Position numbers: made by a program | Assembly: GCF_050320075.1 (NCBI RefSeq) | Contig: NZ_CP190018.1 | DNA from: Escherichia coli | GTDB lineage: Bacteria; Pseudomonadota; Gammaproteobacteria; Enterobacterales; Enterobacteriaceae | Reading direction: 5' to 3' (one strand) | Length of the DNA stretch: 64,000 nt | Shown: piece by piece, positions 31,200 through 40,100 of the stretch | Layout: the number at the start of each line of letters is the position of its first letter | Numbering within the stretch: position 1 is the first letter of the stretch

Positions 31200-34100
31200 T
31201 AACCGGACACGATCTTGATGTGGACTGTAGATATTCAGTCCACATCTCAATCCGCTTACCTGTTTTCTATCGCTTTGTGCTCTTCCTTAAGCACAATCTG
31301 CGAGCGCCTGACTCGTTATTCTCGCGAAATACCATCCAACGTAGACAACACTTCCTCAGAAAGATGCAATTTTTCAGCAGCCATATTCTCCCGTAAATGC
31401 GCAACAGAAGATGTCCCTGGGATCAGCAAAATATTCGGTGAACGTTGTAACAGCCACGCCAGCGCCACCTGCATTGGTGTTGCGCCCAGGCTCGCTGCTA
31501 CATCCGAAAGTGTGGAGGATTGCAGCGGCGTAAAGCCCCCAAGCGGGAAGAACGGCACGTAAGCAATGCCAACGCGGGCCAAATCATCAATCATTGCGTC
31601 ATCAGCACGATGAGCAATGTTGTATTCGTTCTGCACACAGACGATTTCGGTAATCTTACGCGCCTCTGCGACCTGCGTCGGTGTGACGTTGCTCAGGCCA
31701 ATATGTTTTACCAGGCCTTGTTGTTGCATCTCTGCCAGCACGGTCAGGCTGGCTTCAATCGATCCTTCCGCCGGGCCATGACCATCCCCCATCATGACGC
31801 GCAGGTTAACCACATCCAGTACGTCCAGGCCGAGATTACGTAGATTATCGTGTACCGCTTTTTGCAGCTCTGCCGGAGAAAATGCGGGCAACCAGGAAGC
31901 ATCCTCACCACGTCGTGCACCAATTTTAGTGACAATTGTCAGGTCGTCAGAGTAAGGATGTAGCGCTTCGCGGATAATCTGATTGGTGACGTGCGGACCA
32001 TAAAAGTCGCTGGTATCAATATGATTGACGCCCAATGCCAGCGCCTCGCGCAGCACGGTTATAGCAACGTGGCGATCTCTTGGGGGGCCAAAAACCCCAG
32101 GGCCTGCCAGTTGCATCGCGCCATAACCAAGACGGTTAACGGATTTTGTACCGAGAGTAAATGTGTTGCTGCTCATCGCACCCTGCCCTGTAATAAAACG
32201 GATTAAGAAAAATCAGTATAGAAACGAAAAGAGATAAATAATGCGAAGGCGTAAACAAGATTACTGGATGAGTTGCTCTATTGTCCTTGAAGACACCAAA
32301 ACAAAACGCCTAAAGCATCGCATCCGGCAATAAAAAACCGCAACCTGTATCAGCATTGCGGTTTGTGTATCACGTGCTAAAAATTAGAACGTTTTCTTGA
32401 AGTTCAGCATCACGCCTTTGTCGCTGATGCCTTCCTCTTTCCAGTTGTACGCATCCAGATTCAGCGAACTTTCTTTGCTGCTGTACTTCACGCCGACACT
32501 TGCCAGGCTGTTGATGCCGCCGCCCTTCTGACCGTCATCGATGTTAAAGTGCTGACTGCCTGCACCTGCCAGGCTTGCTGTGCGCTGGCTCTTCGCGTAG
32601 CTCAAGTTCGGCCCGCCTTCCAGCGTAGCGCTAGCGCTCCAGCCGTCTTTACCTGCATAGTCCAGTTTCAGCCCGACGATGCTGTCCACCGCCGTTTCGC
32701 TACCACTGTTCATATTCAGGTTAAAGTCTCCGGCATTGCGCTCCTGATAGCCACCTTCCAGTGTGTGACGCAGTTTCACACCCGCATATGGTGTGACCTT
32801 CAGCCCTTCGCTCGGTTCGAAAGTCTTCGCTCCTTCGCTGCGGAACTCCAGGTACTGCTGTTTCACGTCGGTATCAGCAGTTTTGTTCGTGTTGCTAAAT
32901 GCAATCGAACGGCTGCTGTCAAGGTTGTGAACGTCATAACGCAATGCGTTGTTCCAGTTCATGCCATTGTCGAAGGACATCTGATGTTTCAGGCCAAAGA
33001 ACTGGCTGTAACCGCCTGTAACACCATTATCGCCAGCTTTCTGCGCACCGTCGCCATCGAGACGAGCGATACCGTACTCCAGACTCATGGTCTGACTTTC
33101 ACTCAGGTCAATGGTTTTACGCAGTGCCAGCATGTCGTACTCGGTATTGTTCCCCAGCTCCGCGCGCGGATCGCCTTTCGCCACCACGTTGAACGCCAGA
33201 CCGTTACCCACTTTCGGTGCGGCATCTGCCAGCATGCTAAAGCGGTTGCTGAGCACACGCGCTTCGCGGAATACCGTGGTCGCCTGGCTACCGCTGACCT
33301 GTTTCAGGGCGCTGTTCAGTTCGGCAGTCGTGCCGACGTTCAGGCTGGTATACAGCTCGTTGTTGGTGTAACCCGCATCCAGTGCTTTCGCGACGTCATT
33401 CACCGAAGCATCGGTCGCCACATCGGTATAAGCGTTTTTGCTCATAGTGACGTCAACGTTGCCGCTGGCATCGGTACTGCCTTTAGCGTTCCAGACAACT
33501 GAAGAGGAAGTGATATTCTCCGCGCCGCTGATATTTTCACCTTTGAAAACATCATCAATCACCACGGTAGTATCAGCAGTTCCTGCACTAAAGCCAGTAT
33601 TTACCTTGACGTTGTCACTGATAACAAGGTTATTGGCTTTCAAGGTGCCGGAACTTCCGTCGCTATTAGTACCAATAGTGTAATTGGTAAGTTTTTGCTG
33701 ACTTACAGCATTGACTGGTGCCGCAGGAACATTACCTTGCCCAGGCGTCGCAGAAGCGACCGGTACGATTATATCCGCAGTTCCATCCTGACTGTTTCTC
33801 GTCCCTGTGGTATTTGGCGCATAAATCTCGCAACCAATATTACACAACAGGTTGATTATCCCATTATTCACAATCGCTTTAGTGGAACCACCAAACGCCC
33901 ATGAATTATCTGCATAAACGTTAATGACACCGTCTTTAGTATTATTAATCGTTGTTGCAGAACCATTTCCTTTGATGCCAATCAGACCTTCACCGTTGCT
34001 TCCATCTGCTTTGCCCTGTTCAGTACCCACGTTAATTGTGCCGCTGTTCACTAACTGAACAGTATAGCTGGTGGTGCCTCCGCTAATAGCAACTGAACCA

Positions 34101-37100: not shown

Positions 37101-40100
37101 GCCTTGTCGCCGTCGATCTGAATACCGATGGACTCCGGATCGGTGACAGTCATGGTACCCTTGTTGTCCACCGTTGCGCTGTCACCGGTGATATCAATGC
37201 CGTGACCGCCGCCGCTGACATCCAGATCGCCGTCCTGGATAACTTTTCCGTTATTACCGTTGATTTCCGTGCCGGTGGAGTCTTTACCGTCAACGGTGGT
37301 TTTGCCGCTGTTGTTCGCCGTGGCGTCATCTCCGTTAATCTGCGTACCGGTGCCGCCGTTGCTGATGGAACTGTCGCCTTCGTTATTGACAACCGCCTTG
37401 TCGCCGTCGATCTGGATACCGATGGACTCCGGATCGGTAACGGTCATGGTGCCCTTGTTATCCACCGTCGCGCTGTCACCGGTGATATCAATGCCGTGGC
37501 CCCCGCCGCTGACATCCAGATCGCCGCCCTGAATCACTTTTCCGTTATTACCGTTGATTTCTGTACCGGTGGAATCTTTACCGTCAACGGTAGTTTTGCC
37601 GTTGTTGTTCGCCGTGGCGTCATCACCGTTAATCTGCGTACCGGTGCCGCCGTTGGTGATGGTGCTCTCGCCTTCGTTATTGACGATGGCCTTGTCGCCG
37701 TCGATCTGGATCCCCATGGACTCCGGATCGGTGACGGTCATGGTGCCCTTGTTGTCCACCGTTGCGCTGTCGCCGGTAATATCAATCCCGTGACCGCCAC
37801 CGCTGACATCCAGATCGCCATCCTGGATAACCTTCCCGTTATTACCGTTGATTTCTGTACCGGTGGAATCCTTGCCGTCAACGGTGGTTTTGCCGTTGTT
37901 ATTCGCCGTGGCATCATCATCGTTAATCTGTGTGCCGGTGCCACCATTGCTGATGGTGCTGTCGCCTTCGTTGTTAACAACCGCCTTGTCGCCGTCGATC
38001 TGAATACCGATGGACTCCGGATCGGTGACGGTCATGGTGCCCTTGTTATCCACCGTCGCGCTGTCGCCGGTGATATCAATGCCGTGACCGCCGCCGCTGA
38101 CATCCAGATCGCCGTCCTGGATAACTTTTCCGTTATTACCGTTGATTTCCGTGCCGGTGGAGTCTTTACCGTCAACGGTGGTTTTGCCATTGTTGTTTAC
38201 TGTGGCATTATCACCCGTTATAACAAGCTCACCGTTGTGATTATATCGCCACTTTGTTGTGCCATCTGCGCTCACACCTTCAAGGGCAACAGTATTATTC
38301 GCTTCATCAATCTGCCAAAGATTAATCGTTGCCTTACGACCACTGTTATCTTGCAGAGAAATAGTCCCGTCAGCATTCTCGGTATAAGTAAAAACTGAAT
38401 CGCGAATAGTTAACGTTTTTTCTGTTTTATCGAGAATAACGTCATTATTAAACGAAATCGGTTTGGGAGGTGTAGGCGTATCATCCGGAACGTCCGGTAT
38501 TATCTCATCTCCGCCAGGAGTTGGGGGCACTGGAGTGTCGTCTGAATCATCATCAGGGGGCGTCGGTGGGAGTGGAGAATTGTTGCGATGATGATGATCA
38601 TCATCGTCGTTTAGTTCCACTACGGCTAAGGTCGTGATTAACGCAGCAGCGCCTGTGGCAAGCCATGGCATCAGGTTTTGTTCGACTAAAGGGGTGCATT
38701 CAGAGGGTAAGCGTTTAAGCTCTTCCGGACTGAGTTTTCCTGGATCTGCCGGACAAGTCACATTAGTATTTTTCTTTTCACCTGTGGTGGTTTCTACCTC
38801 TGTGATATCTGCCGCCCAACCCTGACCACTCAGAGCTAATGCAATACAGGCCGACAATAAAGTTTTCCTTTGCATAATAAATCCTTCTGGCGAATATAAA
38901 GAAAGCCGGATGCACTAACCCGACCAATTAGTTATTTAAAACATTGAAGACATCCTATATTGCCAGTGGATTATTATCTAATCAAATATACTTTACGATA
39001 ATTCACAGTTATAATTCAGATGAATAAAAAAAGACCATGAAATATATGAATTGTGTATATTATACATATTATAAATTAAACCAAATTACCATTATAAATA
39101 ATCATATAATGAAAAAAACGGTATGATTTAATACTAAAATAAATAAAGCAGAGCTGAAACATAACTCTGCTTTATAATTAAAAGGACAAAATAATTTTAC
39201 ATCTGTTACTGTTTCGGTCGCAGATTCTCATCAAATACCAGGCGTTTCCTGCCAGGTTCAACTTCCCGCAATGGCTCGACTTGATGTAACGTCTGCTTAC
39301 AGCGTGTCACCAGCACCTGATACTCATGCGTGCCCTGCTTTTTCCATGCCAGTTCCTGCTCACTAAGTTCACGAATCGCTTTTGCCGGGCTGCCGACAAT
39401 CAGGTAATTAGCAGGCATTTCTGCTTTGGCTTTCACAAATGCGGAAGCGCCAACAATGCTGTTCTCGCCAATCACCGCACCGTCCATCACTACCGCGTTC
39501 ATACCCACTAATGCATTGCGGCGGATAATGCAGCCGTGAAGGATAGCGCTATGACCAATATGCCCATCTTCTTCCACGACAGTATCCTGATCGGGAAAAC
39601 CGTGCATAACGCAATTATCCTGAATGTTCGCGCCATCTTTCACCACGATACGACCGAAATCGCCACGCAGGCTGGCATTTGGCCCAACGTACACGCCCTT
39701 GCCGAGAATAACATCGCCGATCAATACCGCTGTCGGATGAACAAAACTCTCTTCTGGTACAACCGGAGTCAGACCGTCTATCTGGTAAATTGGCATAACG
39801 CCTCCTGTTCAATGTTCAAACCGCCAAAACGTTGAAAATACAGGCTTCCCGGCGCAGGCAGTTCACCGACCGAGGTTTCACCTTTTTCACTAACGAACGC
39901 TAAAGCAGCAGGCGCTACGCGCTGATAAATGTTGATACACAGCTGACGCGCCGTATGCCCTGCCCAGTGAGCCGGAAGCAACTCCTCCGGCAACAATGGG
40001 TCTTTAAGGACGACACGGCGATAAAAATGGATCAGTAAAAGCTGAATATGAAATGCACGCTCCGGGGTTAATTCGTCTGCCGCCTCTTTTAACAGCGGCA

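Follow-up and report, generated by a model that had tools for sequence, protein, structure and literature searches.

UpaH of Escherichia coli CFT073 is an autotransporter adhesin that, to judge by how the literature cites the Allsopp 2010 paper by title, is found on the bacterial surface and contributes to bladder colonization. H-NS represses upaH, according to a statement in PMC5012682 that cites Allsopp 2012. UpaH variants are reported to differ in biofilm activity (PMC5595812, PMC6714894), and the published CFT073 genome sequence contains a misassembled, frameshifted upaH (PMC3419190, PMC5595812). BigA of Salmonella enterica is poorly characterized and appears only as an adhesin candidate or a pseudogene in the papers found, and in E. 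coli K-12 the gene known as ydbA is a pseudogene (b1401/b1405).

Here, we describe an uninterrupted gene of this family in a stretch of 64,000 nucleotides of an E. coli contig (NZ_CP190018.1), hereafter the window. The locus is very probably upaH, the already characterized BigA-family autotransporter adhesin gene of CFT073, a point absent from the first-pass annotation of the window. We consider it very probable that the gene is an intact ydbA/upaH allele encoding a monomeric (type Va) BigA/YdbA-family autotransporter adhesin, with an array of repeats whose length varies in frame by unequal recombination. The first-pass observation is confirmed yet unremarkable: both the locus and its pronounced variability were known before.

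Locus and gene organization

Open reading frame calling and translation identified a single 6492-bp ORF with an ATG start, encoding 2163 amino acids (aa), at the position proposed in the first-pass annotation (Table 1). RefSeq agrees, with one intact CDS (WP_167784481.1) over the identical sequence. The ORF lies on the minus strand, which the annotation had not mentioned. In RefSeq, many copies of the gene are mislabeled as "EntS/YbdA MFS transporter." The gene order is paaX, paaY (39206-39796), the autotransporter gene, and pdxI (31316-32176), and the slot directly upstream of pdxI (ydbC) is common to the window, K-12, CFT073, and Combat2C1.

An AGGA ribosome-binding site lies 8 nt 5' of the ATG. 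No consensus sigma-70 site was called in the upstream region, whose GC content is consistent with H-NS repression; by analogy with the upaH literature, as represented by the statement in PMC5012682, this region may be silenced by H-NS. The hairpin 3' of paaY sets ydbA apart from the paa operon. A second hairpin lies 21 nt past the stop codon and was missing from the terminator scan because its loop is longer than 8 nt.

Table 1. Features of the ydbA/upaH locus in the window, listed in gene orientation
Feature	Position	Strand	Basis
Terminator-like hairpin, 13-bp stem, 3' of paaY	39143..39175	-	Hairpin scan
AT-rich upstream region, presumed own promoter	38876..39142	-	Composition (25-31% GC), sequence
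Intact ydbA/upaH-locus autotransporter CDS	32384..38875	-	ORF, translation, RefSeq CDS, NCBIfam auto_BigA (1864 bits)
Sec signal peptide (aa 1-21), cleavage predicted between GWA and AD	38813..38875	-	Read from sequence
Conserved TM-like hydrophobic segment LMPWLATGAAALITTLAVV, aa 68-86	38618..38674	-	Hydropathy
Asp/Pro-rich linker, aa 89-139	38459..38611	-	Residue count (15 Pro, 13 Asp of 51)
BigA_N small beta domain, aa 140-220	38216..38458	-	Pfam PF25784, E = 6e-32
Units U1-U5, five of 294 bp/98 aa, aa 229-718	36722..38191	-	Repeat searches, unit alignment, AlphaFold2
U6, degenerate sixth unit, aa 719-816	36428..36721	-	~70% identical to U1-U5
Passenger without repeats, aa 817-1730	33686..36427	-	Allele comparison; precomputed Pfam
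BigA_beta sandwich domain, aa 1731-1815	33431..33685	-	PF25783, E = 2.7e-27
Autotransporter beta-barrel (translocator) domain, aa 1937-2133	32477..33067	-	Pfam PF03797, E = 2e-18
Intrinsic-terminator-like hairpin, AACCGCAA-N12-TTGCGGTT and T run	32332..32363	-	Read by eye

Domain organization and predicted fold

The signal peptide, Pro/Asp-rich linker, and C-terminal beta-barrel that the first-pass annotation had listed were all recovered by translation, residue counts, and Pfam searches. The signal peptide, read from the translation as MQRKTLLSACIALALSGQGWA followed by AD, consists of MQRK, a hydrophobic core, and GWA at the cleavage site; K-12, CFT073, and other alleles all have it unchanged. 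No other 19-mer in the protein is as hydrophobic as residues 68-86 (Kyte-Doolittle mean, 1.79); this putative transmembrane segment, C-terminal to the predicted cleavage site, does not fit a simple export model. The nonrepeat part of the passenger is the region of greatest divergence between alleles, and precomputed Pfam annotation of identical or related proteins places BigA_3rd and BigA_4th there. The protein ends in KKTF, with an aromatic last residue.

AlphaFold2 modeled the BigA_N region as all-beta (pLDDT 78-92) and residues 137-626 with a pLDDT of 94.7, a pTM of 0.91, and three strands per 24-25 residues. The units are predicted to form a three-faced beta-helix, each 98-aa unit corresponding to two 49-aa modules and four rungs. 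A Foldseek search with the model of residues 137-626 returned beta-helix proteins only, first the autotransporter Fap2 (E = 1.5e-4) and then Ag43, EspC, pertactin, TibA, and phage tailspikes; TM-scores were low (0.15-0.38). PDB searches found no sequence relative, and no solved structure showed detectable sequence similarity. The AlphaFold2 model of the C-terminal 464 residues, at a pLDDT of 33, did not confirm a 12-strand barrel, and the beta-barrel is predicted only from the Pfam match. The signal peptide, the C-terminal barrel domain, and the predicted beta-helix passenger together point to a type Va autotransporter.

Structure and constraint of the repeat array

Tandem Repeats Finder scored a 294-bp period at 2680 over 36516-38220, counting 5.8 copies with 89% matches, and also detected a 147-bp subperiod; a separate repeat search found six in-register copies at 36512-38281. 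In gene orientation, U1 to U5 start at aa 229, 327, 425, 523, and 621, and U6 starts at aa 719. The array first delimited at 36728-38197 is the same 1470 bp, offset by 6 nt from U1-U5, and the degenerate sixth copy reported with it is genuine: U6 matches the other units over its first ~40 aa and diverges in the remainder. The description of five near-identical units holds for their number and 98-aa length, but at the DNA level they are not "almost identical," with pairwise identities of 89.5-95.9% (12-31 mismatches per 294 nt) and a longest exact run common to any pair of 122 nt. Protein identity among U1-U5 is 93.9-100%.

Third codon positions account for 40 of the 46 variable columns among U1-U5, and pairwise estimates (dS, 0.21-0.55; dN, 0-0.027) give a dN/dS of ~0.04-0.11, about 0.05. 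Differences between units are thus nearly all synonymous, and the unit protein sequence is, judging from these ratios, under strong purifying selection. Such constraint, at dS values as high as 0.55, speaks against the possibility that the ORF is intact yet cryptic, silenced by H-NS and decaying as in K-12, with an array that has no present function. So does the retention of the N-terminal and beta-domains across deep alleles: the N-terminal 228 aa (and also the first 330 aa) are 88-95% identical among K-12 YdbA, CFT073, and ST131-type alleles, and the last 464 aa are 83-87% identical across alleles. The orthologue in CFT073 is, on the evidence of the Allsopp 2010 title cited above, expressed at the surface and a contributor to bladder colonization. 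Crypticity would nevertheless suit a very AT-rich upstream region and the H-NS repression of upaH noted in PMC5012682, as well as a locus that is often inactivated, by IS2 and IS30 in K-12 and by IS1 in five genomes with the window allele. In addition, O157:H7 retains only the last 17% of the gene, 2302 of 5426 genomes gave no match, and PMC4951805 puts the share of phylogroup A strains with a full-length copy at only ~42%. Weighing both sides, we regard a cryptic gene as unlikely.

In-frame variation in copy number

Counted as copies of at least 99% identity in complete genomes, the 6492-bp window allele is present in 49 genomes, in which it is intact (42 genomes), interrupted by IS1 (5), or altered by small indels (2). 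The intact copies, from many hosts and countries, are all exactly 6492 bp long and at least 99.9% identical. That repeat number varies among strains, as first suggested, was borne out by strain comparison, which found alleles with 1, 5, 6, and 7 units within one 90%-identity protein cluster, two of them with clean recombination junctions. A 5022-bp, one-unit allele (L007) differs from the window allele by the loss of exactly 1470 bp (five units) and by one SNP elsewhere; its deletion breakpoint falls within a 38-nt block of identity with U6 as the right-hand partner, and the one-unit junction occurs at ≥99% identity in about 86 complete genomes. Likewise, a 6198-bp allele (L008) lacks exactly 294 bp (one unit) of the window allele and has two SNPs elsewhere, with the breakpoint in a 20-nt block of identity. 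In a sister allele of equal length from ST2747, U2 and U3 are 100% identical and the unit order is different; the array accounts for 100 of its 151 differences from the window allele. These alleles show that the array changes by homologous (unequal) recombination between units. Among 125 full-length representatives, the number of 49-aa modules ranges from 2 to 23; all alleles stay open, and the steps in length between them are multiples of 49 or 98 aa. Draft assemblies also yield some odd-length variants (2138, 2119, and 1844 aa), which may reflect assembler error and not real alleles.

Since the 294-nt units and 147-nt half-units are both multiples of three, a change in copy number keeps the frame and produces no ON/OFF switching. 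The suggestion in the first-pass annotation that the array is a phase variable is rejected on these grounds, every variant seen being in frame. A contingency locus whose copy number switches the adhesin ON and OFF could be imagined from the differences in copy number among otherwise near-identical alleles, but we judge it highly improbable: none of the 49 complete genomes with a ≥99%-identical allele shows a change in units, which puts the rate far under what a contingency locus would show, and inactivated copies come from IS elements or small indels. Within clones, no change in copy number was found among the serial isolates Z142-2/-4/-7, MSB1_3B/7A, and MLI106K1/K3, which are equal in length.

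It is scarcely credible that the six-unit array was collapsed or wrongly expanded during assembly and that the true copy number is different, even though the original CFT073 genome has the orthologous array in collapsed form (6040 versus 8538 bp; PMC3419190) and odd-length variants arise in drafts, because 42 independently assembled complete genomes share the 6492-bp length, 105 recorded contigs carry the exact protein, and U1-U5, with their 12-31 differing sites, each have their own SNP signature, so that every unit can be placed individually. The warning of assembly risk therefore holds for arrays of this kind, as the CFT073 upaH case illustrates, and not for the window allele.

Proposed mode of action

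If the gene is, as we favor, an intact autotransporter adhesin with an array of variable length, general knowledge of type Va systems suggests that the 21-aa signal peptide would direct Sec export and that the C-terminal beta-barrel would enter the outer membrane via BAM. The barrel would then export the ~1900-aa passenger, which by analogy may fold into a long right-handed beta-helix rod. Each 98-aa unit would add four rungs of 24-25 residues, the array acting as a module for rod length, with 12 modules of 49 aa here and 2 to 26 in other strains. Gain or loss of units by recombination would vary the length and surface epitopes of the rod and would not switch expression. By analogy with CFT073 UpaH, the protein may promote biofilm formation and extracellular-matrix binding and may be transcribed from its own AT-rich, H-NS-silenced promoter.

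A more speculative extension, which we would not expect to hold, is that the array is a tuned length module and not a passive repeat, in which selection keeps the unit protein near-invariant and favors synonymous divergence between neighbors, divergence that confines RecA-mediated loss to a few 20-38 nt identity blocks; on this view, the common one-unit and six-unit alleles of the gene would represent "short-rod" and "long-rod" ecotypes that differ functionally, for example in reach past O-antigen or capsule. Separately, and in the same speculative vein, the conserved TM-like segment could mark an unrecognized N-terminal tether in BigA/YdbA-family autotransporters.

Implications

The names ydbA, from a K-12 pseudogene, and upaH, from a uropathogen adhesin, very probably denote one hypervariable locus. 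The original CFT073 reference still contains the collapsed version of upaH, and virulence-gene screens based on CFT073 under-call upaH elsewhere because of allelic divergence and repeat polymorphism. Exact one-, five-, and six-unit derivatives of one allele provide natural, nearly isogenic length variants for adhesion and biofilm testing. The practical value lies in annotation and typing, and nothing here would surprise autotransporter specialists.

Comparison with described autotransporters

With AIDA-I-type proteins (Ag43, TibA, and AIDA-I) and pertactin, the window protein shares the type Va architecture and a predicted right-handed, three-faced beta-helix passenger; it differs in having no detectable sequence similarity to the solved structures, with the Foldseek TM-scores given above. 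Its predicted rungs are 24-25 aa long, whereas those of AIDA and Ag43 are 19 aa. Phase variation of Ag43 acts through Dam/OxyR at the promoter and not via repeats.

BigA (NCBIfam NF033178, auto_BigA) has the same BigA_N, BigA_3rd, BigA_4th, BigA_beta, and autotransporter barrel domains. The model aligned to residues 627-2163 at model positions 383-1874/1875 and scored 1863.8 bits, well below its curated cutoff of 3400; the window protein is therefore a family relative, and its identification as BigA itself was rejected.

In K-12, IS2 and then IS30 lie between the 5' and 3' fragments of the gene, which upholds the first-pass statement that these insertions split ydbA in K-12 while the gene is intact here. 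Assignment of the gene to ydbA is sound as well, given the shared paaY-ydbA-pdxI locus and 97% identity over the N-terminal 684 nt. Repeat units are 88-96% identical to those of K-12, and DNA identity over the last 1131 nt is 93% (~98% in protein over the last ~380 aa). K-12 differs in having three near-identical units and a degenerate one, and in a central passenger of ~57% protein identity that went undetected by megablast. The possibility that the window allele is simply an uninterrupted K-12 ydbA was rejected on this mid-passenger divergence from the K-12 remnant.

In the mid-passenger, the window protein is nearer to CFT073 UpaH, with 69% identity over ~2090 aa overall. That UpaH is encoded here is indicated indirectly, by the structure of the locus together with published descriptions. 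Re-sequenced CFT073 has one 8538-bp CDS (2845 aa) between ydbL and pdxI, where the original record has a 918-bp and a 4995-bp CDS inside 6040 bp, collapsed and split. The coding region of upaH was reportedly described by Allsopp in 2010 as "an intact 8.535-kb coding region." The contrast between the two CFT073 records agrees with the published misassembly of upaH, an indirect link between the locus and UpaH. CFT073 lacks the paa operon upstream, with ydbL as the neighbor instead, and its longer protein (2845 versus 2163 aa) has 26 modules, including a third type that builds 147-aa super-units, compared with 12 modules in 98-aa units in the window and at least 7 modules in K-12. Biofilm activity may differ with the diverged mid-passenger, and, UpaH variants being functionally heterogeneous, function is not transferable from a 69%-identical orthologue. 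The two genes nevertheless share one chromosomal position, just upstream of pdxI; their products are ~90% identical over the N-terminal 228 aa and 83-84% identical over the last 464 aa (the beta-domain region), and they share the same 49-aa beta-helix modules, spaced at exactly 49 aa from aa 229/230, in a repeat array of the kind that also lay behind the published misassembly.

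An intact autotransporter gene with a divergent repeat array

On the minus strand of the E. coli window, one ATG-started ORF of 2163 codons spans the ydbA locus, and the gene is 100% identical to intact annotated CDSs of many complete genomes. Tandem Repeats Finder reported a 294-bp period (5.8 copies, 89% matches, score 2680) with a weaker 147-bp sub-period within the array, and a repeat search of the window detected six in-register copies of the unit. The first-pass annotation had described an intact single ORF carrying a repeat array, which we confirmed; its 1470-bp repeat block agrees with ours within 6 nt. 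Its description of the units as almost identical was overstated. Units U1 to U5 share 89.5 to 95.9% DNA identity, with 12 to 31 mismatches per unit, a longest exact run of 122 nt common to any unit pair, and 93.9 to 100% protein identity. The sixth, degenerate unit (U6) is ~70% identical, its initial 40 residues resembling the other units and the remainder having drifted. An antisense ORF of 594 aa (36614-38398, plus strand), lying wholly inside the array, is most likely a by-product of repeat composition and not a gene.

Features of the window gene, its protein, and its surroundings
Feature	Residues (aa)	Window position (nt)	Strand	Basis
Autotransporter gene, single ORF	1-2163	32384-38875	-	ORF
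Sec-type signal peptide (MQRK, hydrophobic core, GWA/AD)	1-21		-	read from sequence
Short segment, cysteines at 41 and 60	22-67		-	composition
Conserved, unexpectedly hydrophobic stretch	68-86	38618-38674	-	hydropathy
Asp/Pro linker (of 51 residues, 15 are Pro and 13 Asp)	89-139		-	composition
BigA_N	140-220		-	Pfam, E = 6e-32
Repeat array	229-816		-	unit comparison
U1-U5	first residues 229, 327, 425, 523, 621	38191 down to 36722	-	unit comparison
U6	from 719	36721-36428	-	unit comparison
294-bp period		36516-38220		Tandem Repeats Finder
Nonrepetitive passenger	817-1730		-	alignments to CFT073 and K-12
BigA_beta	1731-1815		-	Pfam
Autotransporter beta-domain PF03797; C terminus KKTF	1937-2133		-	Pfam, E = 2e-18
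Upstream region, ~270 bp		38876-39142	-	GC content
Terminator-like hairpin after paaY		39143-39175	-	13-bp stem; strong
pdxI		31316-32176		
azoR		30597-31202		
hrpA		26494-30396		

Residues 627 to 2163 align to the NCBIfam model for the Salmonella "autotransporter adhesin BigA" with 1864 bits against a cutoff of 3400, so we regard the window protein as a relative within the BigA family and not as BigA itself. A lipoprotein reading of the lipobox-like LSAC at residues 7 to 10 was rejected, since the implied signal peptide would be just 9 aa long.

Predicted fold and a hydrophobic segment

AlphaFold2 modeling of residues 137 to 626 from a 6-row alignment gave an all-beta model (pLDDT 94.7, pTM 0.91) with three strands per 24 to 25 residues. 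The array is accordingly modeled as a three-faced beta-helix, with four rungs predicted from each 98-aa unit. A Foldseek search of the PDB returned right-handed beta-helix proteins only, among them the Fap2 autotransporter (E = 1.5e-4), Ag43, EspC, pertactin, TibA, and phage tailspikes; given the low TM-scores, the predicted resemblance goes no further than fold class. PDB sequence searches with the whole protein and with its C-terminal 338 aa yielded no match even at E ≤ 10, and the model of the C-terminal 464 aa (AlphaFold2, 5-row alignment) was unusable, with a pLDDT of 33.

The hydrophobic stretch, LMPWLATGAAALITTLAVV, is the protein's most hydrophobic 19-mer (Kyte-Doolittle mean of 1.79), exceeding the signal peptide itself. 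It is transmembrane-like, lies 47 residues past the predicted signal peptide cleavage site between two cysteines and the Asp/Pro linker, and is conserved across every allele compared. Such a segment does not fit a simple autotransporter export scheme; a genuine stop-transfer segment at this position would block export of the passenger. Allsopp 2012 reportedly described a "hydrophobic region" of UpaH, the adhesin of uropathogenic CFT073, whose deletion reduces biofilm formation, and that region may be the equivalent of residues 68 to 86.

Selection on the repeat units

Among U1 to U5, 40 of the 46 variable columns are at third codon positions, and dS is 0.21 to 0.55 with dN of 0 to 0.027. The 98 residues of U2 are those of U5 despite 12 synonymous differences. 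Between the window and K-12, dS is 0.03 for paaK, 0.05 for paaX, 0.15 for paaY, 0.20 for pdxI, and 0.34 for the ydbA beta-domain. From these substitution patterns we judge that the units either are old or come from a diverse pool, and that strong purifying selection acts on the protein they encode. Such selection argues that the window gene is in use, despite frequent inactivation elsewhere.

Array length changes in whole modules

We compared 49 complete genomes whose gene is at least 99% identical to the window allele. The gene is exactly 6492 bp in 42; the others carry an IS1 insertion (five), an additional 8 bp (one), or a loss of 15 bp (one), and a whole-unit difference was found in none of the 49. 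The exact window protein is also recorded on 105 contigs, which together with the 42 genomes shows that the six-unit array is not an assembly artifact. The assembly hazard raised in the first-pass annotation is real in the family, as a collapsed CFT073 sequence attests, but does not apply to the window allele.

Its expectation that repeat number varies was borne out: the 90% protein cluster of the window allele holds proteins of 1673, 2065, 2163, and 2261 aa, corresponding to 1, 5, 6, and 7 units. Two alleles derive from the window allele by a clean deletion. One, of 5022 bp (complete genome AP022287), lacks exactly 1470 bp, with one other SNP and a breakpoint in a 38-nt stretch common to U1 and U6 (gene nt 765-803 and 2235-2273); the other, of 6198 bp, lacks exactly 294 bp, with a breakpoint in a 20-nt shared stretch and two other SNPs. 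We found the 1-unit junction, at ≥99% identity, in 86 complete genomes. Because U1 to U5 differ at many synonymous sites, they did not originate recently from U6, and it follows that the long form is the ancestral one, from which the short forms arose by deletion.

The allele of ST2747 (NZ_CP007394.1; L011:301-6792) is likewise 6492 bp long and is 97.7% identical to the window allele, with 100 of its 151 differences falling in the array. Its U2 and U3 are 100% identical, and positional identity with the window allele is retained only by U1, U5, and U6. By sequence comparison, this array shows turnover without net length change, by duplication and deletion or by gene conversion. A strict reading of no homogenization at all between units is softened by these two identical units. 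The 588-bp perfect repeat in this allele would collapse under short-read assembly.

Protein length follows the number of 49-aa modules. That number ranges from 2 to 23 among 125 full-length representatives, and CFT073 has 26. All array changes are multiples of 147 nt and preserve the reading frame. The array therefore cannot be the phase switch that had been suggested; what it varies is length and epitopes, not the ON/OFF state of the gene. Three proteins from single draft contigs, P0002 (2138 aa), P0004 (2119 aa), and P0045 (1844 aa), differ from 2163 aa by nonmultiples of 49 and have a hybrid unit closing the array; they may be assembler artifacts or genuine irregular deletions.

Transcription unit and proposed mechanism

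The window gene, which lies between paaX-paaY and pdxI (ydbC), is apparently transcribed on its own. A strong terminator-like hairpin follows paaY, an AGGA motif lies 8 nt ahead of the ATG, and a hairpin and T run, read by eye, lie 21 nt past the stop codon. A promoter scan found no sigma-70 consensus site in the upstream intergenic region, and promoter-like sites over the whole region matched shuffled expectation (12 versus 11.2). The GC content of the upstream region is 25 to 31%, versus ~50% in neighboring genes, which is consistent with an H-NS-bound promoter and makes H-NS a candidate regulator; one published account states that H-NS represses upaH (PMC5012682). Past pdxI, azoR and hrpA follow directly. 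The ydbD-ynbABCD block, between pdxI and azoR-hrpA in K-12, is missing from the window and likewise from strain YZLc1-3.

Like type Va autotransporters in general, the protein would be exported by Sec, its barrel inserted with the assistance of BAM, and its passenger secreted to fold into a rod. By extension from its orthologue UpaH, it may promote biofilm formation and bind extracellular matrix, with putative H-NS repression, consistent with the AT-rich upstream region. The array deletions themselves are recombinational, fall at short identity blocks, and retain the frame.

Comparison with K-12 ydbA and CFT073 upaH

The assignment to the locus split by IS2 and IS30 in K-12 was correct, as the two elements there lie in turn, IS2 and then IS30, between a 5' and a 3' fragment of the gene. 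ydbA is an autotransporter pseudogene in MG1655 and is full length in ~42% of phylogroup A strains (PMC4951805). Treating the gene as the K-12 allele does not hold, however. Identity to K-12 is 97% over the N-terminal 684 nt and ~98% over the last ~380 aa, but the central passenger shares only ~57% protein identity, and megablast finds no match there. Judged by these alignments, the window allele is something other than an uninterrupted K-12 sequence. Dating the duplication by unit-by-unit orthology was ruled out, because all window and K-12 unit pairs are 87 to 96% identical without a one-to-one pattern. Inactivation routes at the locus include IS1 (five genomes with the window allele), the 8-bp insertion (one), and IS2 plus IS30 (K-12); O157:H7 genomes keep only the final 17% of the gene.

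In B2 strains, the slot just upstream of pdxI is filled by a larger orthologue, whose own upstream neighbor is ydbL and not the paa operon. Re-sequenced CFT073 carries it as a single CDS of 8538 bp and 2845 aa (NZ_CP051263.1:1672570-1681107). The original sequence has CDSs of 918 bp and 4995 bp within 6040 bp (NC_004431.1:1664321-1670360), and this reference still holds the collapsed, split version. Published accounts describe upaH as misassembled, with a frameshift, in the CFT073 genome (PMC3419190, PMC5595812). Allsopp 2010 is said to describe "an intact 8.535-kb coding region," which equals 8538 bp without the stop codon. The CFT073 gene is matched most closely by CFT073 itself, Nissle 1917, ABU 83972, and ATCC 25922. 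This agrees with published mapping against the CFT073 reference, by which upaH is typical of ST73 (PMC5538559). Both complete CFT073 genomes encode 2845 aa and have the order pdxI-ynbA-ynbB; in draft GCA_044905905.1 (ABWJLA010000007.1), labeled "Escherichia coli CFT073," the allele encodes 2555 aa and the gene order is pdxI-azoR-hrpA, so this assembly is probably mislabeled or from another strain. Many YdbA/UpaH autotransporters of 2300 to 2700 aa are named "EntS/YbdA MFS transporter" by the NCBI pipeline (e.g., L002:3654-11471), which looks like a YdbA/YbdA mix-up spread in RefSeq, nr, and UniRef.

Over their first 228 residues, the window protein, K-12 YdbA, and the CFT073 protein share 88 to 95% identity, and whole-length identity between the window and CFT073 proteins is 69%. 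We strongly infer that ydbA and upaH are one locus. UpaH mediates biofilm formation and extracellular matrix binding, with activity varying among variants (PMC5595812, PMC6714894, PMC9289746). We conclude that the window gene is a known adhesin gene of the upaH/BigA family, an identity that the first-pass annotation missed.
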